Position numbers and translations under genes: made by a program. This document shows, piece after piece, positions 2,598 through 49,692 of a stretch of 64,000 nt of DNA (its first letter is position 1; the number at the start of each line of letters is the position of its first letter). Under the pieces are notes generated by a model, which did no database searches, was not told the origin of the DNA, and worked only from the letters and a program-made list of their open reading frames with translations. This stretch comes from Eledone cirrhosa (Eukaryota), in the NCBI GenBank assembly GCA_964016885.1, contig OZ024745.1, positions 86,986,001-87,050,000 of the forward strand. Direction: 5' to 3'.

Positions 2598-4701
<2,104 letters not shown>

Positions 4702-14361: not shown

Positions 14362-14379
14362 TCTATCTATCTATCTATC

Positions 14380-17300: not shown

Positions 17301-18990
17301 ACCTGGTGGGAGAAGCGCAGACATGCGCAATCCCGACCAGGTCCATACACGACAACCTCCACCTCATGCGATACATCATAGAGAGGGTAGGGTGTAAACC
17401 CGGCTTCGGTGGGGACCTGATCAACTTGGATCAGATAAGGCTTTCGATAGGGTTGACCATCGTTACCTGGATGCAGTGCTTGAGGCGGCAGGCTTCGGAC
17501 CCGTGTTCAGGGGCTGGATTGCTGCAATGCACAACAGCAACATCTGCTCAAGGGTCAAGGTGAACGGCTACCTCTCGGAGCCGTTCCATATCACGCGAAC
17601 CATTCGACAGAGATGCCCTCTCTCCTCCCTTCTGTACGTACTGACTCTCGAGCCATTTCTGCGGAAGTTGGAGCTATTGCAGGGCATCTCTCTGGAACCG
17701 GGACTGCGGAAAGCGGCGTCGGCCTACGCCGACGACGTTACAGTAATGGTGTCGAGCACCTCGCAAATCGAGGAAGTTGGCACCTTCTGAAGGAATATGA
17801 ATGGTTCACAGGAGCGAAGCTGATCCGGGACAAGTCCATCGGTTTGTAACTCGGATCGTGGAAAGGCAAACCGATGCCTTCCGATGGCGTCGTCGGACGC
17901 TGGACGGAAGGACTGGTAAAGCTGCTCGGGTTCTGGTTTGGTCGGGACTTCCAGGTGGAGCAGAACTGGAACGAGGTGACGGCCAAGGTGTTTGCACTCA
18001 CCCGTGGAAGTGGACCGAGTGCAAACTATCCTTGAAAGGTCGAGCGGAGGTGGCGAACACTTTTATAGCCTCCGTCATCTACTACTGCATGACCGTCGTG
18101 CCTTTTCCAGCTAAAACGCTTACCAAAATGGAGCGCGCGCTCTTCCAATTCTTCGCAGCAAGTGCGACGACGCGCTCGGAGAAGCTCTAGGCGTAGAGGA
18201 AGACGAACTGGCCAGACTGTTCGGTAGGACTTTTCGCCCAGGACCGATGGACAACTTCCAAAAGTCCCTGGCCTGGCAGTGCTACTGAGCTCTAGCAGTT
18301 CAAGACAAGCTCTACAGACACGGGCGCCTTCGAAAAAGATCTGTCCGAGATGGGTGCGAGACGAAAAAACCGTCGCGCATGCATCCGTACACTGCCCGGG
18401 CGTTACCGACCTGTGGAGCTGTGTAGAACGACTATAGTCGCGGGTGGGACCAATCCGGTTGACCACCGAGTCCATTGTCATGATCAAACCTCAACCCTCC
18501 TTAAAAAACGAATGAGAGGCGGTTTTCCTTTGTGTGATAGCGAAAGAGGTTGTATGGTAGACAAGGTTAAAAGGGCTGAGGTCAGACACCTTTCTCTCCG
18601 GCCAACAACTAATTCTTTTTTTCAAATACCACTTTGGAAGAACAATCAGGATGGAAAGAGAGGTGTTGTACCCCAGCAATTTTTATGAAAGATGGGTGAA
18701 AGTGGCGAGAATGGCCTGAGTGAATGGGCCTTCGCTATATCAGCCTGTAGGTTGAGGAAAAAGAGGAAGAGAGGAAAGGGGTACAATCTCTTCGTACTCC
18801 TGGAGATGAGGGTTGCACATTTTTTTCGGGGGTGTGTGTTACCCATATGAAATGTCTCCCCCTATTGGGAAAATCGATTAACTTTTAAATTGCATTTGTG
18901 ATAATATTTTACACGTTTTTATTGTATGTAAACTTCCCCCTTTGAATTTTTGTCCCCTTCTTTTGTTCCCCTGTGGCTAATAAAGAAACA
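14380..18990 (+). pseudogene. Tx1-like unit E1: 5'-truncated, decayed; family C-like ORF1 middle with family A ORF2
   Basis: FFPTYMGK, CFKC..H..C knuckle; ORF2 from 15674 (MANIRVGCVNV) to 18750 with many frameshifts and a ~330-bp deletion at ~18153. Confidence 0.9.
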
Positions 18991-19011
18991 TATCTATCTA
19001 TCTATCTATCT

Positions 19012-21133
19012 GGAGGTGGCGAACACTTTTATAGCGTCCGTCATCTACTACCGCTTGACCGTCGTGCCATGTCCAGCCAAAACGCTCACAAAAATGGAGC
19101 GCGCGTCTCCCAATTCCTTTGGGAAACGGACTCCTTTGGTGAGAAGATCCATCTGCTGCCAACCCCCTTCAAACGGAGGGCTGGGGATGCCGTGTCTGAC
19201 GATGCGCAAACACGCGCTCAGGCTACGGCACCTCCACGTATTCCTCATCGGACAACCGGTGTTGGCCCCGTTCCTGAGGCGAGCCTTCCCACGACTCGTC
19301 TCGCTGACCGAGCTGCAGTCCTGGGTCAAGCAAAGACCGAGGAAAATGGGTACATCGAATGTGCTCAGGCGCTCACAGTCCCTCTATAGAGGGTTGGTCC
19401 GCAGCAAGTGCGACGACGCGCTCTGAGCCGTTCGCAATCACGCGTTCCATTCGACATGGGTGCCCTCCCTCCCCCATTCTGTATGTATTGACTCTAGAGC
19501 CACTACTGCGGAAACTGGCGCTAGAACCGGAACTGCGCAAAGTGGCATCGGCTTATGCCGACGACGTGACGGTAGTAGTGTCGAACACCTCGGAAATGGG
19601 GGTGATCGGCAACTTACTGAAAGAATGCGAAACGCTGACGGGAGCAAAACTAAACCCGGACAAGTCTGTCGGTTTCAACTCGGTACGTGGAGAGACAAAC
19701 CGATGACGTTCGACAGCGTCGTTGGACGCTGGACGGACGGACCAGTGAAATTGCTCGGGGTCTGTTTCGGTCCAGACCTCCAGGTGAAGAAAAACTGGAA
19801 CGAGGTCACGGCCAATGTGTTTGAGCTCACTCAGAACTGGGCAGAGTACAAACTGTCCTTGTAGGGTCGAGCGGAGGTGGCGAACGCTTTCATAGCGTCC
19901 GTCATCTACTACCGCTTGTCTGTCGTGCCTTGTCCCCGTGAACACCTCGCCAAGATGGAACGCATGCTCTTCCAGTTTCTGTGGAAGAAGCAAGCTCCAC
20001 TGGTGAGGAGATCCGTCTGCTGTGAGCACCCTTCAAACTACGGAATGCCGTGGTTGATGATGCACAAACATGCGCTGTGGCTGCGGCATCTCCAGGTATT
20101 CCTCACCGACCCCTAACCGGTGTGGGCACCGTTTGTCAGATAGGCTTTACCGCAGCCGTCTTGCTGACGGAGCTGCAGTCCTGGGTAAAACAAAGACCGG
20201 AAACGATGGGCGCCTGACACATTGAATGCGCTCAGGCGCTCACAATCCTCTGGCAAGCGGGCACAGCAATCAGTGGAGACTCCACTTCGACATTCTATAG
20301 TGGGATTGTACGTTACAAGGGCGATGACGTGCTCGGAGAGACTCTGAGCGTCGAAGACGATGAGCTCACTAGTCTGTTTGTTAGGACTTTCCGCCCGGGA
20401 CCTATGGACAACTTCCAGAAGTCCCTGGCCTGGCAGTGCTACGGAAGAGCTCTATCAGTTCGTGACAAGATCTACAGACACGGACGCCCCGGCAGGTATC
20501 CTTCCAAGAGGACGTGTCCAAGATGCGCGCAGGACATTGAAACAGCCCTGCACGCAATTGTACACTGCCCGGGCGTAACCGACCTGTGGAACTATGCAGA
20601 ACAACTGCTGTCGCGTATGGGACAAATCCAGTTGACTGCCGAGTCCATAGTAAGGATCAAACCGCCAGCCACTTTCAGCGGTTTTCCTCTGTACAGTGGC
20701 TATGGTGAAAGAGGTTATATGGTGGACGAGATTAAGAGGACTGAGGACAGATGCCTTTCTCTCCGGACAACAATTGATTCCCTTCTTTAAGTATCACTTT
20801 AGAAGGAGAATAAGAGTGGAGAGAGAGGCACTGCACCCCAGGGTGAATGAAGCGAAAATGGCCCGAGTGATTGGGCCTTCTCTGTTTATAAGCCTACAGG
20901 TTAAGGAAGAGAGCAAAAGGAAGAAGAGAGCACTTACACAACGCACTCCTGAAGTTAAGCGTTGTTCCATCGACGGGTATTAAACAACCCATTTGTGGCG
21001 CTTCCCCTCTATTGGGGATTTCTATTGTTATAATTGTTTGTTTTATATTTTTTACACGACTGTATGTAAAAGCCCCGGCATCTGTCTTTGTATTGTTCCC
21101 TTTTCTTGTGCGCCCTTGTGGCATATGATGAAA
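19012..21133 (+). pseudogene. Tx1-like unit E2: chimeric 3' fragment (family A piece fused to family C RT/3' end)
   Basis: 19012-19423 matches family A late ORF2; from 19424 it restarts upstream at EPF..RHGCP..YADD and ends with a 3' UTR like E6. Confidence 0.88.
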
Positions 21134-21146
21134 TCTATCTATCTAT

Positions 21147-24100
21147 AACTCACCAAAAATATTGAAAGTCGGACGGTCGTTTTCCGCACCATCAACAACA
21201 TCTCAAAAAAGCCACAACAACCAACACAAGCAGAAATTAAAGCGGTACTTAGAGAAGTACTTAATGAATCCACTTTCATAAGAAGAGACAGGCTCTATGG
21301 AAGCCTTGCCATTATTATGAAGAACGAATCGGCGGCAAAAAAATATGCTTTGTCGCCGAATCGTTCGACAAATTTTACCTTTTATCCATCTTATATGGGT
21401 AAAAGAACTCAGCGCATATGGCTGGATGCGATGATGCCAGATATGGACTACTGCTGGCTCATAGCTGGCTTCATTGATCCAGCGAATGACAACGTGATTT
21501 CCATTGGGAAAACCACAGGCAATGCGTTCAGTGGAACAGGTATAGAACTTGTAGTGCAAATGAAGCCTGAACGCATTGCCCAAATACCCGACAGAATCCT
21601 ATTAGAGGGCCACGGGTATATAAACATTAGCGTGGAGGGGAGAATGCCGTCCTGTCATATCTGTGCAGGCAGAGGGCACCTGAAGGCGGCTTGTCCCCAA
21701 CTCAACAAGAAGAAAACCCTGCTACCAACACCAGCTCCACCACCACCACAACAGATAAACAAACAACAAAACTCAGTCCTACCCAACCCGTCCGTCAGTA
21801 AAACTACACCACCACCACAGCACAAACAGACACAACACATTACCCAAAAACAAAACACAGTCCCACCCAACCCCTCACTCAATAAAACAACACAACCACC
21901 GCAGCCACAACACACAACACAGTCTAACATAGTGACACCCATCTCCTCCACAAAGAAAACTAACACGGAAACATTACCAGCAAACATACCTCTTCGCTCC
22001 AACACTGAAGATAACCCAACGAATTCGGAGGAAGAAACGGAGTCCTTCAGACAGATAAAAAGGAAAAAAAGAAAACATGTGCAAAACACACAAGGCCAAA
22101 CAGCCCCTACCCAAATGTCAACACAATTCAACAAAACACAAAACACCCCTCCAGCAACAAACAAAACCAAACCTGCCCCTCCCCTCTTCGAAACACTCAC
22201 ACCATCCGAAAAAATGACATTACACTATACTTACATCAACAGAAACAATAATAAATTAAATGAACTCATAAACAATAACCCTTCGGTACAAACCGAAGGG
22301 GTAAACTTTGTTACTTCAGAAAACTACCCACATTTAAAATTAATAAAGATCCCAATGAACCTCTACCAAAAAGTAAAAAAGGATTTTAAGGAGGACGTAG
22401 GACCACCCTCTGTCAAACCCATAAACCGCGTCCTCCTAAAAAGCTTTCCCCCACCCCTTTCCCTCCCCAACACAACTCCAAACACCCCAACCCCACCACA
22501 GACTGACGACCCCACACCACCACAAGACACCCCTTCACCCAACACCCCCGACCCCATGGAAGTCGTGCGACCCGAACCCCGGGAAGGAGAAAGGTAGGTC
22601 TCTACACTCTCCTTTGGTTTTGTCGCCCACATGGATGTGTTAAGAGTAGGATGTTTGAATGCACGTGGCCTGGGCTCAACTTGGAAGCAAGCAAAGAAAA
22701 CTAACACGGAAACATTACCAGCAAACATACCTCTTCGCTCCAACACTGAAGATAACCCAACGAATTCGGAGGAAGAAACGGAGTCCTTCAGACAGATTAA
22801 AAGGGAAAAAAGAAAACATGTGCAAAACACACAAGGCCAAACAGCCCCTACCCAAATGTCAACACAATTCAACAAAACACAAAACACCCCTCCAGCAACA
22901 AACAAAACCAAACCTGCCCCTCCCCTCTTCGAAACAGGTCACGTGGTATAAATGTAATGGTTATCTGTGAGACTCGGATCAGCGTCGTGCGGCAGCTGGC
23001 CCCTACCTTCGATGACTTTGAGGTGCACGCATCTCTCTGTCAACCTGGTGGTGGGGGTGGGGTTGTCGTACTGCTGGAAAAACACCTGGGTCTCGCCGTA
23101 CAGGTTGTTCACTCGGACCCGGAAGGTCGTTTGTTGGTGCTAGACGTTGGCAGTAGTGGAGGTGCGGCCTTGAGACTGGTCGCCGTATACTCCCCTTTCG
23201 GAGCTGAACGACCCGACTTCTTCCAGCGTCTGGAGACTTTTCTGGGAACGTCGCATTCCCTGCTTCTAGCGGGGGACTGGAATGACATCCTAGATGCACG
23301 TTGGGACTATGCAGGAGCATGTCATAATAGAGGGGGGGGGGTGTAACAGCCTCAAGGGTTTACTCGACCCTTTTAACTTGGTCGATAGATATCGACTAGA
23401 TTTTCCAACTGTGCCAACCTGGACTTGGACGAACCATAGTGGTCAATCTAGATCGTACTTAGATAGATTCTTAGTTAGAAGTAAGGATAGGGACATATTA
23501 AGCTGTCCAGAAATGCTCACGGTTAGCCAACCGTGAGCATTTCTGGACAGCTTAATATGTCCCTATACAGATCACAAATTAGTGACCTGCGTAGTCAACC
23601 TCGAGAGAACACATAGACAGGGTCCCGGTTACTGGAAACTTAATTTGTCTTTACCGGCAAAAGAGGCTTACAGAGACCGAATTAACAGATTAGTTAAGGA
23701 GAGGTTGACGGGTGCAATCGTCAACAACCGATGGTGGGCATCTCTCAAAAGAGAGATTAGAACAGAATAAATAAGTTATAGCAATATGTTAGCTGCCGAT
23801 AGGAATAGGAACGAGAAAGAATTAACAGGTAAATTAGAAGAGGCAATCAAGAGCGAAGATGTGGCCAGAGTGCTGGCATCGAGGACGGCCTTGAGCCAGT
23901 TTTTCGATGCAAAGCACGAAGGCTGCATCATTCGAAGTAAAATACGTGCTCTAGGTAATGAGGGGGCCAAAGAAGTTGGCTGGGCCCGCGTGACAGAAGC
24001 TAAGAGTGGAAATCGATCCACCATCCGGTCTTTGCAAGACGAGGATGGACGGGTGATCCGGGAGCCTAAGCAGATGTGCGAGGCCTTTCAAAGGCACTTT

Positions 24101-26506
24101 GCCCGATTGTTCGGGGGAGGCGAGGTTCCGGGCGGGAACGTGGATTTCGGTCCATACCTCGACGGCCTGCCGCGTTTCTCGAGCGAAGAGGCAGAGTCCT
24201 ACGAGGGACCAATCTTGGCTGATGAGATCGGGGATGCGCTGAGCCAATGCAGCAGACGCAAATCTCCAGGTCTCGATGGTATACCTTACGAACTTTATTT
24301 AGCAATGCCGGTCTTCTTCTCCGAACACCTCGAAGCAGTCTACTGCAATTGGCAGCAGAACGGGAGAATTCCTTGTTCTGTAGCCAAGGGCGTAGTCTCG
24401 CTGGTGAGGAAGGACGAGAACAAGGGGGGTAGTATAAATAATTTTCGACCCATAACCCTGCTAAACACAGAGTTAAAGATTTTGGCCAAGGTGTTAGCAA
24501 AGAGGTTGGCGTTTGTCGTGGGTGGCCTGGTCCATTCACGACAACCTCCACCTCATGCGATACATCATAGAGAGGGTTGGGAACAAACCCGGCTTCGGTG
24601 GGGCCCTGATCAACTTGGATCAGTCTAAGGCATTCGATAGGGTCGACCATGGTTACCTGGATGCGTTGCTAGCGGCGGCTGGGTTCGGTCCTGTTTTCAG
24701 AGGCTGGATCATGCCTTACATAGCAACCACATCTGATCTAGGATCAAGGTGAACGGCTACTTTCGAAGCCGTTCGAAATCACACGATCCATTCGACAGGG
24801 GTGCCCTCTCTCCGCCCTTCTGTACGTATTGACTCTTGAGCCTTTACTGAGGAAGTTGGAGTTGTTGCAGGGTATCCGCTGGAACCAGGATTGAGCAAAG
24901 CGGTGTCAGCCTACGCCGATGACGTAACAGTAATGGTATCGACCGACTCGGAGATCGAGGCGATCGGTACCTTACTGGAGGAATACGAAAGGTTGTCAGA
25001 AGCGAAACTGAACCGGGAAAAATCCATCGGGCTGCAACTCGGAACGTGGAGAGGCAAACCGATGCCCCCGACGGTGTCGTCGGGCACTGGACGGAGGGCC
25101 CGGTGAAGTTGCTTGGGGTCTGCTTTGGACCGGACCTCCAGGTGGAAAAGAACTGGGGCGAGGTTACGACAAGGTGTTTGCACTGACCCAGAAATGGGCC
25201 AAGTGTAAGCTGTCCCTGAAAGGTCGGGCGGAGGTGGCGAACATTTACATAGCGTCCGTCACCTACTACCGCCTGACTGTCGTGCCTTGCCCTAAGGAAA
25301 CACTCACCACCATGGAACGCATGCTCTTTCAATTTCTTTGGAAGAAGCGCCCTCTCATGGTGAGAAGATCCATCTGCTGCCAACAACCTTCGAAAGGAGG
25401 GCTGGGGATGCCGTGGTTGATGATGCGTAGGCACGCATTAAGGCTACGGCACCTACAGGTATTCCTCACTGGTCAACCGGTGTGGGTTCCCTTCGTGAGA
25501 CGAGCCTTTTCGAGACTCGTCTCGCTCACCGAGCTGCAATCCTGGGTCAAGCAAAGATCCGGAAAACTGGGCGACTGGCACACTGAGTGTGCCCAGGCGC
25601 TCAGGGCTCTATGGCAAGCGGACCCGGCCATCGGTGGAGAATCCACCTCGTCATTCTATAGAGGGCTGGTGGCTAGCAGGGGCGATGACGCCCTTGGAGA
25701 GTCGCTGGACATGGAAGAGGACGAACTGGCCAGCCTGTTCGGTAGGACTTTCGGCCCGGGACCAATGGACAACTTCCAGAAGTCACTGGCCTGGCAGTGC
25801 TACCGGGGGCTCTACCCGTTCGAGAAAAGCCCTACAGACACGGGCGCCCGGGCAGGGATCCCTCGAAAAAGATTTTCCCTAGATGCGTGCGTCACGAAGA
25901 AACCGTTGCGCACGCATTGGTGCACTGTCCGGGCGTGGCTGATCTGTGGGGCTACGCCGAACGACTGCTGTCGCGGGTGGCGCCCATTCGATTGACCGCC
26001 GAGTCCGTGATGACAATCAAGCCGCCTCCCCTCTTCACAAAGGAAGCAAAGGCGGTTTTTCTGTGCGTAATAGCCATGTTGAAAGAGGTTGTTTGGTGGA
26101 CACGATTGAAAGGTCTGAGGTCAGGCAACTTCCTCTCTGGCCATAGTCTGGTCTACTTCTTCCGATATCACTTTGGAAGAAGGATAAGAATGGAGAGAGA
26201 GGTGCTTGGCCACAGGCAGTTTTATGAAAGGTGGGTGATAGTGGCGAGAATGGCTCGTGTAAATGGGCCTTCTCTGTATACCATCCTGTAGGTAAAGAAG
26301 TGTGAAGGAGAAGAGAGAACCTTCTCCATGTGCTCCCCGGGCAACGGATTGCACACTTTTTCGGGGGTGTGTGCAACCCCATCACGTCCCCTCCCTTTTG
26401 AGGTTGTTTTTGATTATTTTCATTTTATACCCTTTTTACTCGGTTTTATGTAAACTCCCCTTTTGTATTTGTCACTTCTTTTTATAACTTTATGGTAAAT
26501 AAAGAA

Positions 26507-26566: not shown

Positions 26567-26795
26567 CTCTCTCTATCAGTCGTGTGTCACTTCGCGGAGA
26601 AGTTTCCGTTAATTTATGTAAGAAAAAAAACGTGAGTTTTTAGTTCAATTTTATATCATTGTGTAACTTGACCACCCGTCTGGACCTTCAGGTGGTGGGT
26701 CAACTCATTTTCGCCCCTTCAGGGGCGGAATATCCATTTAAAAAATTTTTCTCCATCGAATCTTGGAAAAAATATTGTAAAATTTTGATTACGTT

Positions 26796-28712
26796 ATGAA
26801 CGCTGCGTCCAACGATAATGGTGGTGGAGAGGCGGTAAGACTACAAAGCTCGCAGTCAACAACGTCTTCTTCACTAGATACTATAGAGATGGAAAGACAA
26901 AATGAAAATAAAAAAACGAATTCACATCCAAACAACACAAATGACACCAAACAGCTCAATGACAACAAAAATAACAGCAAAACCAATAATGATGATAAAA
27001 GCAACAATGATAACAACAACAAAGAAAAAAATAAAGACAACGCCAATAACACCAGCATCAAAGACAACAACAACACCAAGGAAAATACGGATGATACCAA
27101 CATCGGTGACAACAAGAATAACAACAACAATAACAACAATAATGACAACACCACCAATACGGATTCCACAAAGAAACCAAAAATCTCCTTTGCGGAGAAA
27201 GTTCAAAAGAAAGAACAATTGATATATCTCGACATAACAAATGCTGAACACCTTTTAAAGGACGCTAAGAGATATGTCACCTTCGAAAAAAATGGTGCTT
27301 TCAGCATCAATTCTCCGGTAGAAATTCGCAAGGAAACTGCTCTCAAAACGATAGTTTTTAGGACAGTTTCCAATTCTACCCGAAAACCAGTCCAATTGTC
27401 ACAGAAAGATATTGAACTGGTTTTCAAAGATTCAATGAATGATATTGCATTCATTCAAAGAAGCAAACTTTTTGGGAGTATTTCGGTACTGATGAAGGAT
27501 CAATTGACGGCTCAAAATTACTCTGTGTCGCCAATTGTATCCAACCTGTACACCTTTTTCCCTACATACATGGGAAAAAGGACACAAAAGATCAGAATCA
27601 CAAGTGTCACACCAAAGGTGAACATATGGTGGATACTGTGCGGCTTCATCAATTTTGATGAAGACAGAATACTGTCAGTAGGCAAGTCCCCCAGAGATGT
27701 ATTCAATGGGACTAGCATTGAAGTTCTGGTGCAAATGAGCCCAGAGCGAATAGCTATGATCCCACAGCGTGTACTCCTGGACGGACTTACCTACATAAAC
27801 CTTTCGGTTGAGGGTAGGCGGCCTTCATGTTACCATTGCTTTAGCAGGGGTCACCTGAGGGCTTCCTGTCCTAAACTAATGAACCAAAAAAAGGCTCTTC
27901 TACCGACACCCATCAAAACAACACAACCACCAACACCACCACTACAACAACAACACCAACACACAAAAATAACCACAACAAACACAGTCCCACCCAACCT
28001 CACTCCACCTAAAACCACTGCAAAATCACATACAGACACAACAGCTCCCCAAGACATACCCCTCCCCAATCACACAGACGATACAACAGATGAGGCTATC
28101 TCGCCATCACCCAGTGAAGACGAGGGAGAACCCCATCGCTCGAAAAGAAAGAAAAGACATCACAAAAGCAAAAAACCAGCAAACACTACCACAAACATAC
28201 AACCACCAACACAAACAACAAAAATATCACAAACAAAACCCCCACCTCCTGAAAACAAAATACCTACAACAAAACGAAAGCACACACAAGAACTACAGAC
28301 AAAAACAAACACAACACAAGAAAATTACACTTACACTTACATAAACACTGAAAACAAAACACTAATGGAGACCATTACGAACGACCCTTCGGTTTTCACC
28401 GAAGGGAAAACTTTCGCCCACTCTATAAAAAATAGCAAAAAAATGAACCTAAAACTGATTAGGGTCCCTATACAAACTTATAGGTCCCTAAAAGAAACAT
28501 TTGAGAAGGATGTGGGGAATTCCTGCGTGAAACCACTCAACCGCGTCCTTCTCAAATGCCTCCCCACCCCAGACACCCCCATCCCACCAGACCCCACCCC
28601 ACCAAACATCTGCGTCCCCACCCCGCCGGAAACCACCACCCATCCAGACAACCCCTCCAACACCCCCATGGAAATCGTGCGGCCTGGTCCCCAGGAGGCG
28701 AAGGGTGAGTGA
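26796..28712 (+). CDS. ORF1p, gag-like RNA-binding protein (638 aa)
   Basis: Asn-rich N-terminus, globular middle (RRM-like, inferred), CYHCFSRGHLRASC (CX2CX4HX4C), Pro/Thr/Lys-rich linker. Confidence 0.93.
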   Translation: MNAASNDNGGGEAVRLQSSQSTTSSSLDTIEMERQNENKKTNSHPNNTNDTKQLNDNKNNSKTNNDDKSNNDNNNKEKNKDNANNTSIKDNNNTKENTDDTNIGDNKNNNNNNNNNDNTTNTDSTKKPKISFAEKVQKKEQLIYLDITNAEHLLKDAKRYVTFEKNGAFSINSPVEIRKETALKTIVFRTVSNSTRKPVQLSQKDIELVFKDSMNDIAFIQRSKLFGSISVLMKDQLTAQNYSVSPIVSNLYTFFPTYMGKRTQKIRITSVTPKVNIWWILCGFINFDEDRILSVGKSPRDVFNGTSIEVLVQMSPERIAMIPQRVLLDGLTYINLSVEGRRPSCYHCFSRGHLRASCPKLMNQKKALLPTPIKTTQPPTPPLQQQHQHTKITTTNTVPPNLTPPKTTAKSHTDTTAPQDIPLPNHTDDTTDEAISPSPSEDEGEPHRSKRKKRHHKSKKPANTTTNIQPPTQTTKISQTKPPPPENKIPTTKRKHTQELQTKTNTTQENYTYTYINTENKTLMETITNDPSVFTEGKTFAHSIKNSKKMNLKLIRVPIQTYRSLKETFEKDVGNSCVKPLNRVLLKCLPTPDTPIPPDPTPPNICVPTPPETTTHPDNPSNTPMEIVRPGPQEAKGE

Positions 28713-28746
28713 TCTCTTTTTCCTCTTTTAACTTTTCAGCACCAGC

Positions 28747-31700
28747 ATGGCCAATATAAGAGTTGGATGTGTGAACGTACGCGGCCTGGGGATGCCCTGG
28801 AAACAGGGCAAACTCTTAAACGACCTCAGGTCGCACAGTTTGGATGTGGTAGCCATTTGCGAGTCCAGGATCCACGGCGAGCGACAGCTGGCCCCCATCT
28901 TCGATGACTTTGAGATCTACGCATCTCTCTGTCAACCGGGGGGTGGGGGCGGAGTTGCCGTTTTGCTGCGGAAACACCTGGGCCTCGTAACACAGACGGT
29001 ACATCTGGACCCGGAGGGTCGACTGGTGGTCCTAGACGTTGACGGTAGTGAAGGTGGAGCGTTCAGGCTGGTGGCCGCATATGCCCCATCCGGGACACCG
29101 CGGCCAGACTTCTTCAAACGTCTAGAGACTTTTCTGGGAACGTCCCGCTCCTTGCTTTTAGTGGGGGACTGGAATGGAATCCTAGATGCACGTTGGGACT
29201 ATGTGGGAGCATGTCCCGATAAAGGGGGGTGTAACAGCCTCAAACAGTTAATCGACCGATTTGACCTGGCCGATAGATATCGACTAGATTTTCCGACTGC
29301 GCCACTGTGGACGTGGAGTAATCGTAGCGGAACATCTAGATCGTACCTAGATAGGGTTCTAGTTAGAAATAAGGATAGGGACATGTTAAGCTGTCCACAA
29401 ATGTTCATGGTTGCCTATTCAGATCACAAACTAGTGACCTGCATGGCCAACCTTGATAGAACCCATAGACAAGGACCCGGCTACTGGAAGCTGAACTTGT
29501 CGTTACCGACAAGCAAAGCCTACAGTAGACGGATTAGCACTTTAGTTAAACAGCACTTGACAGGGGCCATTGTCAACAACAGATGGTGGTACTCTCTCAA
29601 GAGGGCAGTTAGATTAGACTCGATAGTTTTTAGTAAAGAATTAGCGTTAGATAGAAATAGAACCGAGAAGGAACTGGTAGATAAAGTAGAAGAGGCTATT
29701 AGAAGTGGCAACGTAGCCAGCGTGCTAGCAACGAGAACGGCCTTGGACCAGTTCTTCGACGCAAAGCACGAGGGCTGCGTTGTCAGAAGCAAAATACGTG
29801 CTCTGGGAAACGAGGGAGCCAAAGCTGTTAGCTGGGCCCGAGTGACGGAGGCAAAAAGTGGCAACAAGTCCACGATTCGGTCTTTGAAGGACCAAAACGG
29901 ACGCGTGATACGTGAGCCGAAGCAGATGTGTGCGGCTTTTCAGCGGCACTTTGCTCGGCTGTTCGGGGGGAGCGGCGCGCCGGGAGAGGCTATGGATTTC
30001 GGTCCATACCTCGACGGCCTACCGCGACTCTCGGACAGCGAGGCGAAGTTCTGCGAAAAGCCGATTTCAGCCACTGAGATAGGGGACGCGCTGAGCCAAT
30101 GCGGCAAACGCAAATCTCCAGGTCTCGACGGTCTACCCTACGAATTTTACGTAGCAATGCCGGACTTATTCTCCGGTCTCCTGGAAGCGGTCTACTGCAA
30201 CTGGCAACAGAACGGGAGAATTCCCAGTTCTGTAACCGGGGGCGTGGTCACACTAATCAGGAAGGACGAGAATAAGGGGGATGACATAGGCAACTTATGG
30301 CCCATAACTCTGCTAAACACAGAGTTACAGATTTTGGCCAAGGTGTTGGCAAAGAGGCTGGCGCTTGTCGTCGAGAACCTGGTGGGAGAAGCGCAGACAT
30401 GCGCGATCCCGACCAGGTCCATACACGACAACCTCCACCTCATGCGATACATCATAGAGAGGGTAGGGTGTAAACCCGGCTTCGGTGGGGCCCTGATCAA
30501 CTTGGATCAGTCTAAGGCTTTCGATAGGGTTGACCATCGTTACCTGGATGCGGTGCTCGAGGCGGCAGGCTTCGGACCCGTGTTCAGGAGCTGGATTGCT
30601 GCAATGCACAACAGCAACATCTGCTCAAGGGTCAAGGTGAACGGTTACCTCTCGGAGCCGTTCCATATTACGCGATCCATTCGACAGGGATGCCCTCTCT
30701 CCTCCCTTCTGTACGTACTGACTCTCGAGCCACTACTGCGGAAGCTCGAGCTATTGCAGGGCATCCCTCTGGAACCGGGACTGCGGAAAGCGGCGTCAGC
30801 CTACGCCGACGACGTGACAGTAATGGTGTCGAGCGCCTCGCAAATCGAGGAAGTCGGCACCTTACTAAAGGAATACGAAAGTCTCACAGGAGCGAAGCTG
30901 AACCGGGACAAGTCCATCGGTTTGCAACTCGGATCGTGGAGAGGCAGACCGATGCCTTCCGATGGCGTCGTCGGACGCTGGACGGAAGGACCGGTAAAGC
31001 TGCTCGGGGTCTGGTTTGGTCCGGACCTCCAGGTGGAGAAGAACTGGAACGAAGTGACGGCCAAGGTGTTTGCACTCACCCAGAAGTGGGCCGAGTGCAA
31101 ACTATCCTTGAAAGGTCGAGCGGAGGTGGCGAACACTTTTATAGCGTCCGCCATCTACTACCGCTTGACCGTCGTGCCTTGTCCAGCCAAAACGCTCGCC
31201 AAAATGGAGCGCGCCCTCTTCCGATTCCTTTGGAAGAGGCGGGCTCCTTTGGTAAGAAGATCCATCTGCTGCCAACACCCTTCTAACGGAGGGCTGGGGA
31301 TGCCGTGGTTGACGATGCGCAAACACGCGCTCAGGCTGCGGCATCTCTACGTATTCCTCACCGGACAACCGGTGTGGGCCCCGTTCGTGAGGCGAGCCTT
31401 CCCACGACTCGTCTCGCTGACCGAGCTGCAGTCCTGGGTCAAGCAGAGACCGAGGAAAATGGGCGACTGGCACATCGAATGTGCTCAGGCGCTCACAGCC
31501 CTCTGGCAGGCGGACCCGGCGATCAGTGGAGACTCCACTTCGTCATTCTATAGAGGGTTGGTCCGCAGCAAGTGCGACGACGCGCTCGGTGAAACTCTAG
31601 GCGTGGAGGAAGATGAACTGGCCAGTCTGTTCGGTAGGACCTTCCGCCCGGGACCGATGGACAACTTCCAAAAGTCCCTGGCCTGGCAGTGCTACCGAGG

Positions 31701-32184
31701 AGCTCTACCAGTTCGAGACAAGCTCTACAGACATGGGCGCCCGGGCAGGGACCCTGCAAAAAAGATCTGTCCGAGGTGCGTGCGAGACGAAGAAACCGTC
31801 GCGCACGCATTCATACACTGCCCGGGCGTCACTGACCTGTGGGGCTATGTAGAACGACTATTGTCGCGGGTGGGACCAATCCGGTTGACCACCGAGTCCA
31901 TTGTCATGATCAAACCGCCACCCTCCTTCAAAAACGAAGGAGAGGCGGTTTTCCTTTGTGTGATAGCTATGGCGAAAGAGGTTGTATGGTGGACAAGGTT
32001 GAAAGGGCTGAGGTCAGACACCTTTCTCTCCGGCCAACAACTGATTCTTTTTTTCAAATACCACTTTGGAAGAAGAATCAGGATGGAGAGAGAGGTGCTG
32101 TACCCCAGCAAGTTTTATGAAAGGTGGGTGAAAGTGGCGAGAATGGCCCGAGTGAATGGGCCTTCTCTCTATATCAGCCTGTAG
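28747..32184 (+). CDS. ORF2p, AP-endonuclease / reverse transcriptase (1145 aa)
   Basis: NVRGL, GDWN, YLDR, SDH (APE); KSPGLDG, DQSKAFD, RQGCPLS, YADD (RT); CPRC..H...HC zinc finger; carries LWPI instead of FRPI. Confidence 0.97.
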   Translation: MANIRVGCVNVRGLGMPWKQGKLLNDLRSHSLDVVAICESRIHGERQLAPIFDDFEIYASLCQPGGGGGVAVLLRKHLGLVTQTVHLDPEGRLVVLDVDGSEGGAFRLVAAYAPSGTPRPDFFKRLETFLGTSRSLLLVGDWNGILDARWDYVGACPDKGGCNSLKQLIDRFDLADRYRLDFPTAPLWTWSNRSGTSRSYLDRVLVRNKDRDMLSCPQMFMVAYSDHKLVTCMANLDRTHRQGPGYWKLNLSLPTSKAYSRRISTLVKQHLTGAIVNNRWWYSLKRAVRLDSIVFSKELALDRNRTEKELVDKVEEAIRSGNVASVLATRTALDQFFDAKHEGCVVRSKIRALGNEGAKAVSWARVTEAKSGNKSTIRSLKDQNGRVIREPKQMCAAFQRHFARLFGGSGAPGEAMDFGPYLDGLPRLSDSEAKFCEKPISATEIGDALSQCGKRKSPGLDGLPYEFYVAMPDLFSGLLEAVYCNWQQNGRIPSSVTGGVVTLIRKDENKGDDIGNLWPITLLNTELQILAKVLAKRLALVVENLVGEAQTCAIPTRSIHDNLHLMRYIIERVGCKPGFGGALINLDQSKAFDRVDHRYLDAVLEAAGFGPVFRSWIAAMHNSNICSRVKVNGYLSEPFHITRSIRQGCPLSSLLYVLTLEPLLRKLELLQGIPLEPGLRKAASAYADDVTVMVSSASQIEEVGTLLKEYESLTGAKLNRDKSIGLQLGSWRGRPMPSDGVVGRWTEGPVKLLGVWFGPDLQVEKNWNEVTAKVFALTQKWAECKLSLKGRAEVANTFIASAIYYRLTVVPCPAKTLAKMERALFRFLWKRRAPLVRRSICCQHPSNGGLGMPWLTMRKHALRLRHLYVFLTGQPVWAPFVRRAFPRLVSLTELQSWVKQRPRKMGDWHIECAQALTALWQADPAISGDSTSSFYRGLVRSKCDDALGETLGVEEDELASLFGRTFRPGPMDNFQKSLAWQCYRGALPVRDKLYRHGRPGRDPAKKICPRCVRDEETVAHAFIHCPGVTDLWGYVERLLSRVGPIRLTTESIVMIKPPPSFKNEGEAVFLCVIAMAKEVVWWTRLKGLRSDTFLSGQQLILFFKYHFGRRIRMEREVLYPSKFYERWVKVARMARVNGPSLYISL

Positions 32185-32423
32185 GTTGAGGAAAAGGAGG
32201 AGGAGAGGAAAGGAGTACAAGCTCTTCGTACTCCTGGAGATGAGGGTTGCACATTTTTTTCGGGGGTCTGTGTTACCCATATAAACTGTCTCCCTCTATT
32301 GGGGAAAATCGACTAACTTTTAAATTCCATCTGTGATAACATTTTACACGTTTTTATTGTATGTAAACTTCCCCCTTTGTATTTGTCCCCTTCTTTTGTG
32401 CCCCTGTGGCTAATAAAGAAATA

Positions 32424-32472
<49 letters not shown>

Positions 32473-32697
32473 CTCTATCAGACGTGTGTCACTTCGCGGA
32501 GAAGTTTCCGTTAATTTATGTAAGGAAAAAACGTGAGTTTTTAGTTCAATTTTATATCATTGTGTAACTTGACCACCCGTCTGGACCTTCAGGTGGTGGG
32601 TCAACTCATTTTCGCCCCTACAGGGGCGGAATATCCATTTAAAAAATTTTTCTCCATCGAATCTTGGAAAAAAATATTGTAAAATTTTGATTACGTT

Positions 32698-34614
32698 ATG
32701 AACGCTGCGTCCAACGATAATGGTGGTGGAGAGGCGGTAAGACTACAAAGCTCGCAGTCAACAACGTCTTCTTCACTAGATACTATAGAGATGGAAAGAC
32801 AAAATGAAAATAAAAAAACGAATACACATCCAAACAACACAAATGACACCAAACAGCTCAATGACAACAAAAATAACAGCAAAACCAATAATGATGATAA
32901 AAGCAACAATGATAACAACAACAAAGAAAAAAATAAAGACAACGCCAATAACACCAGCATCAAAGACAACAACAACACCAAGGAAAATACGGATGATACC
33001 AACATCGGTGACAACAAGAATAAAAACAAGAATAACAACAATAATGACAACACCACCAATACGGATTCCACAAAGAAACCAAAAATCTCCTTTGCGGAGA
33101 AAGTTCAAAAGAAAGAACAATTGATATATCTCGACATAACAAATGCTGAACACCTTTTAAAGGACGCTAAGAGATATGTCACCTTCGAAAAAAATGGTGC
33201 TTTCAGCATCAATTCTCCGGTAGAAATTCGCAAGGAAACTGCTCTCAAAACGATAGTTTTTAGGACAGTATCCAATTCTACCCGAAAACCAGTCCAATTG
33301 TCACAGAAAGATATTGAACTGGTTTTCAAAGATTCAATGAATGATATTGCATTCATTCAAAGAAGCAAACTTTTTGGGAGTATTTCGGTACTGATGAAGG
33401 ATCAATTGACGGCCCAAAATTACTCTGTGTCGCCAATTGTATCCAACCTGTACACCTTTTTCCCTACATACATGGGAAAAAGGACACAAAAGATCAGAAT
33501 CACAAGTGTCACACCAAAGGTGAACATATGGTGGATACTGTGCGGCTTCATCAATTTTGATGAAGACAGAATACTGTCAGTAGGCAAGTCCCCCAGAGAT
33601 GTATTCAATGGGACTAGCATTGAAGTTCTGGTGCAAATGAGCCCAGAGCGAATAGCTATGATCCCACAGCGTGTACTCCTGGACGGACTTACCTACATAA
33701 ACCTTTCAGTTGAGGGTAGGCGGCCTTCATGTTACCATTGCTTTAGCAGGGGTCACCTGAGGGCTTCCTGTCCTAAACTAATGAACCAAAAAAAGGCTCT
33801 TCTGCCAACACCCATCAAAACAACACAACCACCAACACCACCACTACAACAACAACACCAACACACAAAAATAACCACAACAAACACAGTCCCACCCAAC
33901 CTCACTCCACCTAAAACCACTGCAAAATCACATACAGACACAACAGCTCCCCAAGACATACCCCTCCCCAATCACACAGACGATACAACAGATGAGGCTA
34001 TCTCGCCATCACCCAGTGAAGACGAGGGAGAACCCCATCGCTCGAAAAGAAAGAAAAGACATCACAAAAGCAAAAAACCAGCAAACACTACCACAAACAT
34101 ACAACCACCAACACAAACAACAAAAATATCACAAACAAAACCCCCACCTCCTGAAAACAAAATACCTACAACAAAACGAAAGCACACACAAGAACTACAG
34201 ACAAAAACAAACACAACACAAGAAAATTACACTTACACTTACATAAACACTGAAAACAAAACACTAATGGAGACCATTACGAACGACCCTTCGGCTTTCA
34301 CCGAAGGGAAAACTTTCGCCCACTCTATAAAAAATAGCAAAAAAATGAACCTAAAACTGATTAGGGTCCCTATACAAACTTATAGGTCCCTAAAAGAAAC
34401 ATTTGAGAAGGATGTGGGGAATTCCTGCGTGAAACCACTCAACCGCGTCCTTCTCAAATGCCTCCCCACCCCAGACACCCCCATCCCACCAGACCCCACC
34501 CCACCAAACATCTGCGTCCCCACCCCGCCGGAAACCACCACCCATCCAGACAACCCCTCCAACACCCCCATGGAAATCGTGCGGCCTGGTCCCCAGGAGG
34601 CGAAGGGTGAGTGA
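32698..34614 (+). CDS. ORF1p, gag-like (638 aa)
   Basis: Same as 26796-28712 except 4 amino-acid differences seen. Confidence 0.93.
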   Translation: MNAASNDNGGGEAVRLQSSQSTTSSSLDTIEMERQNENKKTNTHPNNTNDTKQLNDNKNNSKTNNDDKSNNDNNNKEKNKDNANNTSIKDNNNTKENTDDTNIGDNKNKNKNNNNNDNTTNTDSTKKPKISFAEKVQKKEQLIYLDITNAEHLLKDAKRYVTFEKNGAFSINSPVEIRKETALKTIVFRTVSNSTRKPVQLSQKDIELVFKDSMNDIAFIQRSKLFGSISVLMKDQLTAQNYSVSPIVSNLYTFFPTYMGKRTQKIRITSVTPKVNIWWILCGFINFDEDRILSVGKSPRDVFNGTSIEVLVQMSPERIAMIPQRVLLDGLTYINLSVEGRRPSCYHCFSRGHLRASCPKLMNQKKALLPTPIKTTQPPTPPLQQQHQHTKITTTNTVPPNLTPPKTTAKSHTDTTAPQDIPLPNHTDDTTDEAISPSPSEDEGEPHRSKRKKRHHKSKKPANTTTNIQPPTQTTKISQTKPPPPENKIPTTKRKHTQELQTKTNTTQENYTYTYINTENKTLMETITNDPSAFTEGKTFAHSIKNSKKMNLKLIRVPIQTYRSLKETFEKDVGNSCVKPLNRVLLKCLPTPDTPIPPDPTPPNICVPTPPETTTHPDNPSNTPMEIVRPGPQEAKGE

Positions 34615-34647
34615 TCTCTTTTCCTCTTTTAACTTTTCAGCACCAAC

Positions 34648-37600
34648 ATGGCCAATATAAGAGTTGGATGTGTGAACGTACGCGGCCTGGGGATGCCCTG
34701 GAAACAGGGCAAACTCTTAAACGACCTCAGGTCGCACAGTTTGGATGTGGTAGCCATTTGCGAGTCCAGGATCCACGGCGAGCGACAGCTGGCCCCCATC
34801 TTCGATGACTTTGAGATCTACGCATCTCTCTGTCAACCGGGGGGTGGGGGCGGAGTTGCCGTTTTGCTGCGGAAACACCTGGGCCTCGTAACACAGACGG
34901 TACATCTGGACCCGGAGGGTCGACTGGTGGTCCTAGACGTTGACGGTAGTGAAGGTGGAGCGTTCAGGCTGGTGGCCGCATATGCCCCATCCGGGACACC
35001 GCGGCCAGACTTCTTCAAACGTCTAGAGACTTTTCTGGGAACGTCCCGCTCCTTGCTTTTAGTGGGGGACTGGAATGGAATCCTAGATGCACGTTGGGAC
35101 TATGTGGGAGCATGTCCCGATAAAGGGGGGTGTAACAGCCTCAAACAGTTAATCGACCGATTTGACCTGGCCGATAGATATCGACTAGATTTTCCGACTG
35201 CGCCACTGTGGACGTGGAGTAATCGTAGCGGAACATCTAGATCGTACCTAGATAGGGTTCTAGTTAGAAATAAGGATAGGGACATGTTAAGCTGTCCACA
35301 AATGTTCATGGTTGCCTATTCGGATCACAAACTAGTGACCTGCATGGCCAACCTTGATAGAACCCATAGACAAGGACCCGGCTACTGGAAGCTGAACTTG
35401 TCGTTACCGACAAGCAAAGCCTACAGTAGACGGATTAGCACTTTAGTTAAACAGCACTTGACAGGGGCCATTGTCAACAACAGATGGTGGTACTCTCTCA
35501 AGAGGGCAGTTAGATTAGACTCGATAGTTTTTAGTAAAGAATTAGCGTTAGATAGAAATAGAACCGAGAAGGAACTGGTAGATAAAGTAGAAGAGGCTAT
35601 TAGAAGTGGCAACGTAGCCAGCGTGCTAGCAACGAGAACGGCCTTGGACCAGTTCTTCGACGCAAAGCACGAGGGCTGCGTTGTCAGAAGCAAAATACGT
35701 GCTCTGGGAAACGAGGGAGCCAAAGCTGTTAGCTGGGCCCGAGTGACGGAGGCAAAAAGTGGCAACAAGTCCACGATTCGGTCTTTGAAGGACCAAAACG
35801 GACGCGTGATACGTGAGCCGAAGCAGATGTGTGCGGCTTTTCAGCGGCACTTTGCTCGGCTGTTCGGGGGGAGCGGCGCGCCGGGAGAGGCTATGGATTT
35901 CGGTCCATACCTCGACGGCCTACCGCGACTCTCGGACAGCGAGGCGAAGTTCTGCGAAAAGCCGATTTCAGCCACTGAGATAGGGGACGCGCTGAGCCAA
36001 TGCGGCAAACGCAAATCTCCAGGTCTCGACGGTCTACCCTACGAATTTTACGTAGCAATGCCGGACTTATTCTCCGGTCTCCTGGAAGCGGTCTACTGCA
36101 ACTGGCAACAGAACGGGAGAATTCCCAGTTCTGTAACCGGGGGCGTGGTCACACTAATCAGGAAGGACGAGAATAAGGGGGATGACATAGGCAACTTCCG
36201 GCCCATAACTCTGCTAAACACAGAGTTACAGATTTTGGCCAAGGTGTTGGCAAAGAGGCTGGCGCTTGTCGTCGAGAACCTGGTGGGAGAAGCGCAGACA
36301 TGCGCGATCCCGACCAGGTCCATACACGACAACCTCCACCTCATGCGATACATCATAGAGAGGGTAGGGTGTAAACCCGGCTTCGGTGGGGCCCTGATCA
36401 ACTTGGATCAGTCTAAGGCTTTCGATAGGGTTGACCATCGTTACCTGGATGCGGTGCTCGAGGCGGCAGGCTTCGGACCCGTGTTCAGGGGCTGGATTGC
36501 TGCAATGCACAACAGCAACATCTGCTCAAGGGTCAAGGTGAACGGTTACCTCTCGGAGCCGTTCCATATTACGCGATCCATTCGACAGGGATGCCCTCTC
36601 TCCTCCCTTCTGTACGTACTGACTCTCGAGCCACTACTGCGGAAGCTGGAGCTATTGCAGGGCATCCCTCTGGAACCGGGACTGCGGAAAGCGGCGTCGG
36701 CCTACGCCGACGACGTGACAGTAATGGTGTCGAGCGCCTCGCAAATCGAGAAAGTCGGCACCTTACTAAAGGAATACGAAAGTCTCACAGGAGCGAAGCT
36801 GAACCGGGACAAGTCCATCGGTTTGCAACTCGGATCGTGGAGAGGCAGACCGATGCCTTCCGATGGCGTCGTCGGACGCTGGACGGAAGGACCGGTAAAG
36901 CTGCTCGGGGTCTGGTTTGGTCCGGACCTCCAGGTGGAGAAGAACTGGAACGAAGTGACGGCCAAGGTGTTTGCACTCACCCAGAAGTGGGCCGAGTGCA
37001 AACTATCCTTGAAAGGTCGAGCGGAGGTGGCGAACACTTTTATAGCGTCCGCCATCTACTACCGCTTGACCGTCGTGCCTTGTCCAGCCAAAACGCTCGC
37101 CAAAATGGAGCGCGCCCTCTTCCGATTCCTTTGGAAGAGGCGGGCTCCTTTGGTAAGAAGATCCATCTGCTGCCAACACCCTTCTAACGGAGGGCTGGGG
37201 ATGCCGTGGTTGACGATGCGCAAACACGCGCTCAGGCTGCGGCATCTCTACGTATTCCTCACCGGACAACCGGTGTGGGCCCCGTTCGTGAGGCGAGCCT
37301 TCCCACGACTCGTCTCACTGACCGAGCTGCAGTCCTGGGTCAAGCAGAGACCGAGGAAAATGGGCGACTGGCACATCGAATGTGCTCAGGCGCTCACAGC
37401 CCTCTGGCAGGCGGACCCGGCGATCAGTGGAGACTCCACTTCGTCATTCTATAGAGGGTTGGTCCGCAGCAAGTGCGACGACGCGCTCGGTGAAACTCTA
37501 GGCGTGGAGGAAGATGAACTGGCCAGTCTGTTCGGTAGGACCTTCCGCCCGGGACCGATGGACAACTTCCAAAAGTCCCTGGCCTGGCAGTGCTACCGAG

Positions 37601-38085
37601 GAGCTCTACCAGTTCGAGACAAGCTCTACAGACATGGGCGCCCGGGCAGGGACCCTGCAAAAAAGATCTGTCCGAGGTGCGTGCGAGACGAAGAAACCGT
37701 CGCGCACGCATTCATACACTGCCCGGGCGTCACTGACCTGTGGGGATATGTAGAACGACTATTGTCGCGGGTGGGACCAATCCAGTTGACCACCGAGTCC
37801 ATTGTCATGATCAAACCGCCACCCTCCTTCAAAAACGAAGGAGAGGCGGTTTTCCTTTGTGTGATAGCTATGGCGAAAGAGGTTGTATGGTGGACAAGGT
37901 TGAAAGGGCTGAGGTCAGACACCTTTCTCTCCGGCCAACAACTGATTCTTTTTTTCAAATACCACTTTGGAAGAAGAATCAGGATGGAGAGAGAGGTGCT
38001 GTACCGCAGCAAGTTTTATGAAAGGTGGGTGAAAGTGGCGAGAATGGCCCGAGTGAATGGGCCTTCTCTCTATATCAGCCTGTAG
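34648..38085 (+). CDS. ORF2p, AP-endonuclease / reverse transcriptase (1145 aa)
   Basis: All APE, RT (FRPITLLN, QGCPLS, YADD) and C-terminal CCHC motifs intact. Confidence 0.97.
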   Translation: MANIRVGCVNVRGLGMPWKQGKLLNDLRSHSLDVVAICESRIHGERQLAPIFDDFEIYASLCQPGGGGGVAVLLRKHLGLVTQTVHLDPEGRLVVLDVDGSEGGAFRLVAAYAPSGTPRPDFFKRLETFLGTSRSLLLVGDWNGILDARWDYVGACPDKGGCNSLKQLIDRFDLADRYRLDFPTAPLWTWSNRSGTSRSYLDRVLVRNKDRDMLSCPQMFMVAYSDHKLVTCMANLDRTHRQGPGYWKLNLSLPTSKAYSRRISTLVKQHLTGAIVNNRWWYSLKRAVRLDSIVFSKELALDRNRTEKELVDKVEEAIRSGNVASVLATRTALDQFFDAKHEGCVVRSKIRALGNEGAKAVSWARVTEAKSGNKSTIRSLKDQNGRVIREPKQMCAAFQRHFARLFGGSGAPGEAMDFGPYLDGLPRLSDSEAKFCEKPISATEIGDALSQCGKRKSPGLDGLPYEFYVAMPDLFSGLLEAVYCNWQQNGRIPSSVTGGVVTLIRKDENKGDDIGNFRPITLLNTELQILAKVLAKRLALVVENLVGEAQTCAIPTRSIHDNLHLMRYIIERVGCKPGFGGALINLDQSKAFDRVDHRYLDAVLEAAGFGPVFRGWIAAMHNSNICSRVKVNGYLSEPFHITRSIRQGCPLSSLLYVLTLEPLLRKLELLQGIPLEPGLRKAASAYADDVTVMVSSASQIEKVGTLLKEYESLTGAKLNRDKSIGLQLGSWRGRPMPSDGVVGRWTEGPVKLLGVWFGPDLQVEKNWNEVTAKVFALTQKWAECKLSLKGRAEVANTFIASAIYYRLTVVPCPAKTLAKMERALFRFLWKRRAPLVRRSICCQHPSNGGLGMPWLTMRKHALRLRHLYVFLTGQPVWAPFVRRAFPRLVSLTELQSWVKQRPRKMGDWHIECAQALTALWQADPAISGDSTSSFYRGLVRSKCDDALGETLGVEEDELASLFGRTFRPGPMDNFQKSLAWQCYRGALPVRDKLYRHGRPGRDPAKKICPRCVRDEETVAHAFIHCPGVTDLWGYVERLLSRVGPIQLTTESIVMIKPPPSFKNEGEAVFLCVIAMAKEVVWWTRLKGLRSDTFLSGQQLILFFKYHFGRRIRMEREVLYRSKFYERWVKVARMARVNGPSLYISL

Positions 38086-38323
38086 ATTGAGGAAAAGGAG
38101 GAGGAGAGGAAAGGAGTACAAGCTCTTCGTACTCCTGGAGATGAGGGTTGCACATTTTTTCGGGGGTATGTGTTACCCATATAAACTGTCTCCCTCTATT
38201 GGGGAAAATCGACTAACTTTTAAATTCCATCTGTGATAACATTTTACACGTTTTTATTGTATGTAAACTTCCCCCTTTGTATTTGTCCCCTTCTTTTGTG
38301 CCCCTGTGGCTAATAAAGAAATA

Positions 38324-43452: not shown

Positions 43453-43453
43453 C

Positions 43454-49335: not shown

Positions 49336-49358
49336 TATCTATCTATCTATCTATCTAT

Positions 49359-49679: not shown

Positions 49680-49692
49680 TCTATCTATCTAT

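Follow-up and report, generated by a model that had tools for sequence, protein, structure and literature searches.

A 5′ splice-site motif where ORF1 ends in tandem L1/Tx1-type retrotransposons of Eledone cirrhosa and the possible removal of ORF2 by splicing

Can a long interspersed nuclear element (LINE) make more of its first protein than of its second by splicing the second open reading frame (ORF) out of its message? The question is raised by a window of Eledone cirrhosa DNA, the whole stretch of 64,000 nucleotides (nt) analysed here (GenBank assembly GCA_964016885.1, contig OZ024745.1, positions 86,986,001 to 87,050,000 of the forward strand), which is AT-rich, contains many microsatellites and is eukaryotic in character. 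Between approximately 14.3 and 52.1 kb it holds related retrotransposons of the non-LTR kind (LTR, long terminal repeat) arrayed head-to-tail, every copy on the plus strand, and in two of them, E4 and E5, both ORFs are open. The donor-like motif at the ORF1 stop of these elements is, in our assessment, a real and apparently undescribed feature, and the explanation that we favour, at a little under an even chance, is that this conserved 5′ splice site yields an ORF1-only mRNA by splicing out ORF2. The parts of E4 on which the argument turns are as follows (a slash within a motif marks the splice boundary; UTR, untranslated region).

26578–32423, plus strand: E4, a full-length family A LINE with both ORFs open
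26796–28712, plus strand: ORF1 of E4, 638 amino acids, with low-complexity arms and a core
28702–28710, plus strand: 5′ splice-site motif AGG/GTGAGT, GT at 28705, phase 1, overlapping the final ORF1 codons
28713–28746, plus strand: pyrimidine-rich inter-ORF spacer; family A end TTTAAC-TTTTCAG, with the AG ending at 28739
28747–32184, plus strand: ORF2 of E4, 1145 amino acids
28705–32184, plus strand: proposed intron of 3480 nt
32121–32129, plus strand: competing 8/9 donor AAG/GTGGGT, formed by conserved R-W-V codons 61 nt upstream of the ORF2 stop
32160–32184, plus strand: candidate acceptor, consisting of pyrimidine-rich codons, a CAG ending at 32177 and the TAG (ORF2 stop) ending at 32184
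32188–32217, plus strand: purine-rich tract opening the 3′ UTR, 97% purine
32412–32479, plus strand: AATAAA followed by the (TATC)n tail or target

The donor motif at the ORF1 stop

The window elements fall into four families, namely, A (E1, E4, E5 and E7), B (E3), C (E2 and E6) and D (E10); E2 and E6 are 91.5% identical, which places them in a single family, a relationship overlooked in an earlier note on this DNA. Between families, identity amounts to 71–82% at the 3′ end of ORF2 and to 47–65% in the 3′ UTR. The copies compared with E4 are listed below.

14367–19011, plus strand: E1, decayed family A, start approximate; donor GT at 15630, TAG ending at 18750
19012–21146, plus strand: 5′-truncated chimera of a family A fragment (19012–19423) and E2 (family C), CAG ending at 20899
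21147–26506, plus strand: E3, family B, 5′-truncated; donor AAG/GTAGGT at 22594, phase 2, TAG ending at 26291
32480–38323, plus strand: E5, family A, 99% identical to E4; donor GT at 34607, TAG/A ending at 38085
38428–43379, plus strand: E6, family C, with an internal ORF2 deletion; AAG/ATAAGT at 40488, phase 2 as read, TAG ending at 43147
43453–49358, plus strand: E7, decayed family A; donor GT at 45776, TAA ending at 49097
49693–52100, plus strand: E10, family D, 5′-truncated; CAA ending at 51950, 3′ end interrupted and end position approximate

The 5′ end of U1 RNA recognizes donors by base pairing, and when all GT sites of each element are ranked by the energy of this pairing, the GT at the end of ORF1 comes first in E1 (223 sites), E4 (277), E5 (274) and E7 (283), and second among the 266 sites of E3. 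The E4 site matches the consensus 5′ splice site at 8/9 positions, and the family C sequence, AAG/ATAAGT in E6, is a single substitution away from the perfect motif. Of the 1530 remaining stop triplets in the window, only 9 have a donor of at least 8/9 nearby. The donors that the earlier note had reported (GT at 28705 and 34607, AAG/GTAGGT at 22594) are present in the sequence, as is the misfit it had acknowledged in the decayed E6, with ATAAGT instead of a GT donor.

A motif that overlaps coding sequence may nevertheless be a by-product of it. Lys, Arg and Gly codons followed by a stop generate AG-GTA, hydrophobic codons followed by TAG resemble an acceptor, a purine tract readily supplies a stop, and shared descent would spread the pattern among families. 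With the last six residues of ORF1 held fixed, an 8/9 donor is expected with P 0.35 for family A and 0.07 for family B, under a null model which presumes that these residues have not themselves been shaped by the motif; furthermore, the site at 32124 is an 8/9 motif of equal strength that stems from coding constraint. Both results count against splicing at the ORF1 end, and within the window the donor pattern could still reflect descent and codons.

More distant relatives bear directly on this alternative. Forty loci were retrieved, of which 39 are tandem arrays on contigs of one metagenome-assembled genome; the distant fortieth locus, L066, was set aside. The arrays comprise two groups, M1 and M2, with ORF2 identities to E4 of 41–42% and 40%, respectively, and ORF1 of M1 is homologous to that of the window elements (probability 99.7). 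Judged by sequence, the contigs are likely eukaryotic host DNA. As an observation in its own right, the record concerned (G001; L032–L071 minus L066) is that of a bacterial genome and yet includes many tandem, mostly intact LINE arrays of eukaryotic type, with 88 ORF2 matches, likely host DNA binned with the bacterial genome.

In all 61 de-duplicated M1 units, the ORF1 stop is followed by G/GTAAGT (TAA G/GTAAGT). The resulting AAG/GTAAGT is a 9/9 match located one base past the stop and wholly within a 13-nt non-coding spacer, in which the seven donor bases are invariant and three of the six others vary; it ranks 1, 1 and 3 among the 372–376 GT sites of three subfamilies. The 61 units represent a single lineage rather than 61 tests. 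Nevertheless, a perfect motif that lies entirely after the stop and stays invariant amid varying neighbours tells against codon constraint as its source, as does a second M1 donor past ORF2, considered below, in which variation is confined to the R position and the exon side. Weighing these features against the codon models, we consider it quite unlikely that the pattern as a whole is a by-product, and recurrence in a relative with 41% ORF2 identity strengthens the proposal that a 5′ splice site lies at the stop of ORF1.

The breadth of this conservation is limited, which is a further point against the splicing explanation. The three M2 units have no donor at the ORF1 end, where they read CCT/GTAATG, with stop and start overlapping in TAATG, and none of seven more distant ORF1 stops reaches 8/9; these metagenome loci, mostly with 23–37% best-segment identity, serve as controls only. 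The ORF1-stop donor is accordingly carried by one of the two close outgroups and by one of nine outgroup stops overall, against a background of 0.6–4% per stop (in two relatives, 9/239 and 5/239 stop triplets have such a donor nearby, true sites included). At the protein level only, two of seven distant ORF1 proteins that were judged by eye to be complete have the endings GK-stop and GKS-stop, as G/GTAAGT would encode. Sequence comparison thus provides moderate, not overwhelming, outgroup support for a conserved donor.

The acceptor, the products and the alternatives

The earlier note had placed the other end of the intron at the ORF2 stop. The motifs it cited are there (CCTGTAG ending at 32184 and at 26291, CAG ending at 20899), the 3′ UTR opens with a tract of 77–97% purine in 7/7 3′ ends scored, and E7 (TAA) and E10 (CAA) deviate as it had stated. 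YAG is found in six of eight 3′ ends and YAG/G in five (E5 has TAG/A). When acceptors are ranked among YAG sites by a crude pyrimidine score, the ORF2-stop site is 2/154 in E4, 2/139 in E3, 3/41 in E2 and within ranks 2–3 in E5; it is lower in E1 (8/132) and not among the ten best of 139 sites in E6. The ORF2-stop TAG is the best YAG common to families A, B and C, with the purine tract following it. Contigs from related copies include the end variant TAG/GTGA, which keeps a phase-2 stop and is counted in favour. The TAG is the first AG after the pyrimidine tract in family B but not in family A, and inspection by eye revealed no clear branch-point motif upstream.

Several observations weigh against this site. 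The pyrimidine content does not exceed that obtained by synonymous resampling of the same ten residues (P 0.35, 0.21, 0.98, 0.81 and 0.60), the tract encodes the hydrophobic terminal segment of ORF2, and the ORF2 stop occupies the same aligned column in proteins of 42–71% identity (P0001, P0002 and P0004). In family A, the CAG ending at 32177 is the first after the tract, 7 nt earlier, and its use would add 35 residues. Another contig variant, TAG/ACAG, has neither the G nor the stop (three contigs, agreement 0.66). The variants TAA and CAA are synonymous with TAG and CAG, and human L1 also has a polypurine motif in its 3′ UTR (PMC5860796), both as expected were the signals by-products of codons and descent. 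Among the relatives, the M1 ORF2-stop TAG ranks only 64–88 of 166–207 YAG sites and is replaced by TCG in 7/59 units, ORF2 of M2 ends in TAA, and neither group has a purine tract at this place (37–47% purine). Hence, no independent support emerged for an intron end at the ORF2 stop, given that the stop column is conserved, the tract is explained by codons and the acceptor of the relatives is poor or absent. The acceptor argument is weak and unfit to be cited as support, and an intron ending exactly at 32184 (join 28705 to 32184) appears doubtful to us.

Much the same holds for the matched phases. On paper, the joins produce G-stop in family A, D-stop in E5 and R-stop in family B, and the phases agree in families A and B, being 1 and 2, respectively. 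A T placed before the purine tract yields a stop with P 0.48–0.74, so that an immediate stop is near-automatic and only the match of phase is informative. Family C is mismatched as read, the E6 donor being in phase 2 and the acceptor stop in phase 1, and the join would add 28 amino acids in E6 or 76 in E2; the decay of the E6 copy leaves room for a slip of one base. In M1, the donor follows the ORF1 stop and no immediate stop is necessary after splicing. The phase-matched stops of the earlier note thus stand on paper for families A and B but not for C and carry little information; we regard the phase argument as weak and unfit to be cited as support.

The donor might instead be used locally, through a short spacer intron, through an ORF1–ORF2 fusion, or, if the acceptor at 28739 were joined to a donor in the 5′ UTR, to make an ORF2-only mRNA like the human SpORF2, which provides a precedent (PMC2896524). 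The spacer site at 28739 is the top-ranked YAG in E1, E4 and E5 and the second in E7, with TTTAAC upstream; the 5′ UTR of family A contains an 8/9 donor at 26632; and introns that reach AGs early in ORF2, 51 nt long in family B and 54 nt long in family C, would fuse the ORFs in frame. The segment from 28705 to 28739, however, is just 35 nt long, and the join is out of the ORF2 frame and adds APAWPI-stop; the spacers of B and C have no AG, and family C lacks the 5′ UTR donor. Moreover, the phase of family A forbids fusion, and the M1 donor comes after the stop. On this evidence, we consider local use decidedly unlikely.

Removal of ORF2 predicts products, and none has been recovered. ORF1-only copies with the junction, one of the checks set by the earlier note, are absent among the six ORF1 ends in the window and the 61 in M1, each of which is followed by ORF2. 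Internal deletions of window copies were tried as candidate spliced retrocopies and ruled out, with GT-AG ends in 0/9 cases. Both results are unfavourable, the former only mildly so, because ORF2p acts preferentially in cis (PMC5860796), which by itself would keep ORF1-only copies scarce. Contigs of unrecorded type from four of six sequencing runs, none of them listed as RNA, were aligned to E4; among the 15 joints listed of 342, none connects 28704 to 32185, with the proviso that contigs show presence, not absence. Queries with ORF1 for annotated proteins with the spliced-form ending gave no match, and a literature search, conducted mostly without subscription papers and Repbase Reports, found no ORF2-spanning intron in a LINE. 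Another check, conservation of GT and AG in related families, was borne out for the M1 donor (61/61) and failed for the M2 donor and for the acceptor of the relatives.

The 3′ ends of the relatives introduce a second donor and, with it, a further explanation, namely, that the U1-binding sites act without splicing, for instance by suppressing early 3′-end formation or by steering how the RNA is processed, while translational reinitiation, known from other LINEs, determines the ORF1:ORF2 ratio. Just past the ORF2 stop, the top-ranked donor is GTRAGT in 59/59 M1 units (L039 10486, L048 10486) and CAG/GTAAGT at +41 in 3/3 M2 units (L032 13056). In the 3′ UTRs, some 720 nt long, a strong polypyrimidine-TAG lies at +239 to +278 in six M1 subtypes and at +185 in M2, followed by two poly(A) signals, at +436 to +470 and at +685 to +728, both downstream of the second donor. 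Genomic copies finish at the distal signal, and 50/50 M1 readings retain the second donor and the whole 3′ UTR undeleted. At least this donor is therefore not spliced in the RNA that gets copied back, and the idea that U1 binds without splicing gains real weight; in the Arabidopsis element EVD, U1 has been shown to suppress early termination (PMC5580714). At the end of ORF1, by contrast, such a role is harder to envisage. No AATAAA or ATTAAA occurs within ORF2 of E4, E6 or M1 (the decayed E3 has two), so that a non-splicing U1 site there would have little to suppress, and in the window families the ORF2-stop region scores only 5–7/9 as a donor, a weak motif for U1 pairing. As an account of the ORF1-end donor, we therefore hold U1 binding without splicing to be unlikely.

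Removal of ORF2 by splicing would proceed as follows. U1 would bind the donor at the ORF1 end, and part of the transcripts would be spliced from it to a 3′ acceptor, for which the best candidates are the ORF2-stop TAG in the window families and the polypyrimidine-TAG 239–278 nt into the 3′ UTR in M1. The ORF1-only mRNA could then supply excess RNA-binding protein, whereas unspliced RNA would serve as the ORF2 message and the retrotransposition template. Nonsense-mediated decay follows a 50–55 nt rule, and with the junction this close to the stop the spliced message would be expected to escape it. Control of the ORF1:ORF2 ratio by splicing is what we infer from this arrangement. By analogy with EVD, the layout of M1 and M2 suggests that splicing at the ORF1 end would also remove the second U1 site and free the proximal poly(A) signal. 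In its broadest form, the proposal would be that ORF2 is a retained intron throughout a broad clade of animal L1/Tx1-type LINEs, that the post-ORF2 U1 site of the relatives represses the proximal poly(A) signal in unspliced RNA only, that the spliced message ends early and is not copied back, and that the shGAG logic of copia evolved here independently; we consider this conceivable but on balance improbable.

The elements and their surroundings

ORF2 contains the Pfam domains Exo_endo_phos (apurinic/apyrimidinic (AP) endonuclease), RVT_1 (reverse transcriptase) and zf-RVT, and its closest solved structure in the PDB is human L1 ORF2p (E 1e-109). ORF1 produced zero Pfam matches; a fold search returned proteins with RNA recognition motifs (RRM) at E 3e-5 with low TM scores (0.24–0.31), a CCHC motif is seen in the sequence, and the core is predicted to consist of two RRM-like domains and a CCHC knuckle (pLDDT 92.6). 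Among named proteins, one of Argonauta hians comes closest (61% across the region searched). A scan against Rfam had no match in the elements or in eight related loci, and a search of viral contigs found no related elements. Seven of the eight aligned 3′ ends lead into (TATC)n, the E10 end being interrupted, and some copies, namely, E2, E3 and short fragments, are truncated at the 5′ end but intact at the 3′ end. The elements are an ordinary new L1/Tx1-type LINE family, where the Tx1 likeness derives from the domain set, the ORFs and the repeat target, and the tree spans only the relatives collected here rather than named Tx1 families. They resemble the microsatellite-targeting Tx1 LINEs Kibi, with (TC)n, Koshi, with (TTC)n, and the crocodilian families with (TTCC)n/(TTTC)n, which likewise have two ORFs, AP endonuclease and reverse transcriptase, clustering in simple repeats and 5′ truncation (PMC4494074), but differ in the target, (TATC)n; splice-based expression does not figure in the portion of that account drawn on here. 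Recently active L1-Tx1 families are listed for Octopus vulgaris (PMC13282606).

Two copies bear traces of rearrangement. The family A fragment of the chimera (19012–19423) overlaps a segment absent from the neighbouring E1, and its fusion to E2 suggests a template switch or a local rearrangement; in E3, 245 nt of ORF1 (21951–22195) are copied into the start of ORF2 at 22692–22936 with 99% identity. The 5′ UTRs of families A and C share two hairpins (26668–26730; 38505–38595 in E6), with both-side changes in 2/23 predicted pairs, and an acceptor-like motif at 26722 was rejected as a splice signal because it sits in these hairpins.

In the relatives, an invariant AG cluster of M1, about 50 nt past ORF2, was likewise dismissed as a splice signal, since long-range pairing is predicted for it in most UTRs tested. 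This pairing, of approximately +45 with +600 to +650 in the 3′ UTRs of L039, L048, L037, L033 and L032, was predicted with no shuffle control, and the sequences that pair in M1 differ from those in M2. The family A tail (window 32382–32399) and an M2 3′ UTR (L032 6593) share one pyrimidine-rich word of 18 nt without a mismatch, at a protein identity of 40%; given its low complexity, this may be chance.

A palindromic mini-element of about 120 nt occurs twice between (TATC)n runs (14249–14366 and 49562–49680, 87% alike). Its 3′ arm resembles the LINE tail and its 5′ arm is the reverse complement thereof (fold z −11.2 and −12.6), and it may represent a non-autonomous family of hairpins that these LINEs carry. 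An interspersed repeat of about 180 nt, probably a short interspersed nuclear element (SINE), is found at 44781–44974 (within ORF1 of E7), 1472–1629, 56688–57058, 58856–59052 and 61868–62059. Elsewhere in the window are a tRNA-Ser(CGA)-like sequence on the minus strand (60564–60636, Rfam 38.5 bits), which is either a gene or a SINE head, a reverse transcriptase fragment of another retroelement outside the cluster (6619–7083) and an inverted repeat of about 595 nt with 94% identity (2601–3954), flanked by (TA)n.

Known systems and significance

The closest parallel to the proposed splicing comes from the Ty1/copia element EVD of Arabidopsis (PMC5580714), in which a U1 site, conserved close to where the structural gene ends, acts both in splicing, proposed to provide excess structural protein, and in suppression of early termination. 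EVD is an LTR element with one ORF, and its short intron around the protease, combined with premature polyadenylation, has been demonstrated on RNA; the window elements have a non-LTR domain set and a putative intron of 3.5 kb, so that the parallel is one of analogy only. Within LINEs, the human L1 SpIREs and SpORF2 share the presence of splice sites in the transcript, but remove 5′ UTR or ORF1 sequence and have been described as dead ends or ORF2-only messages (PMC5860796; PMC2896524); none of the splicing described in the consulted parts of these reports starts from a donor at the stop of ORF1 and excises ORF2. The half-L1 elements, HAL1, are similarly ORF1-only products of an L1-type element (PMC5753468), but these are genomic non-autonomous copies, of a kind not seen at the ORF1 ends of the window and M1.

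The need of LINEs for many ORF1 proteins per ORF2 protein has been placed at the level of translation (PMC3894237). If the favoured explanation is true, a conserved intron spanning ORF2 would represent a second route to ORF1 excess, through RNA processing, paralleling that of copia. It would also offer a direct way for ORF1-only elements of the HAL1 type to arise and would give hosts a splicing handle on retrotransposition.

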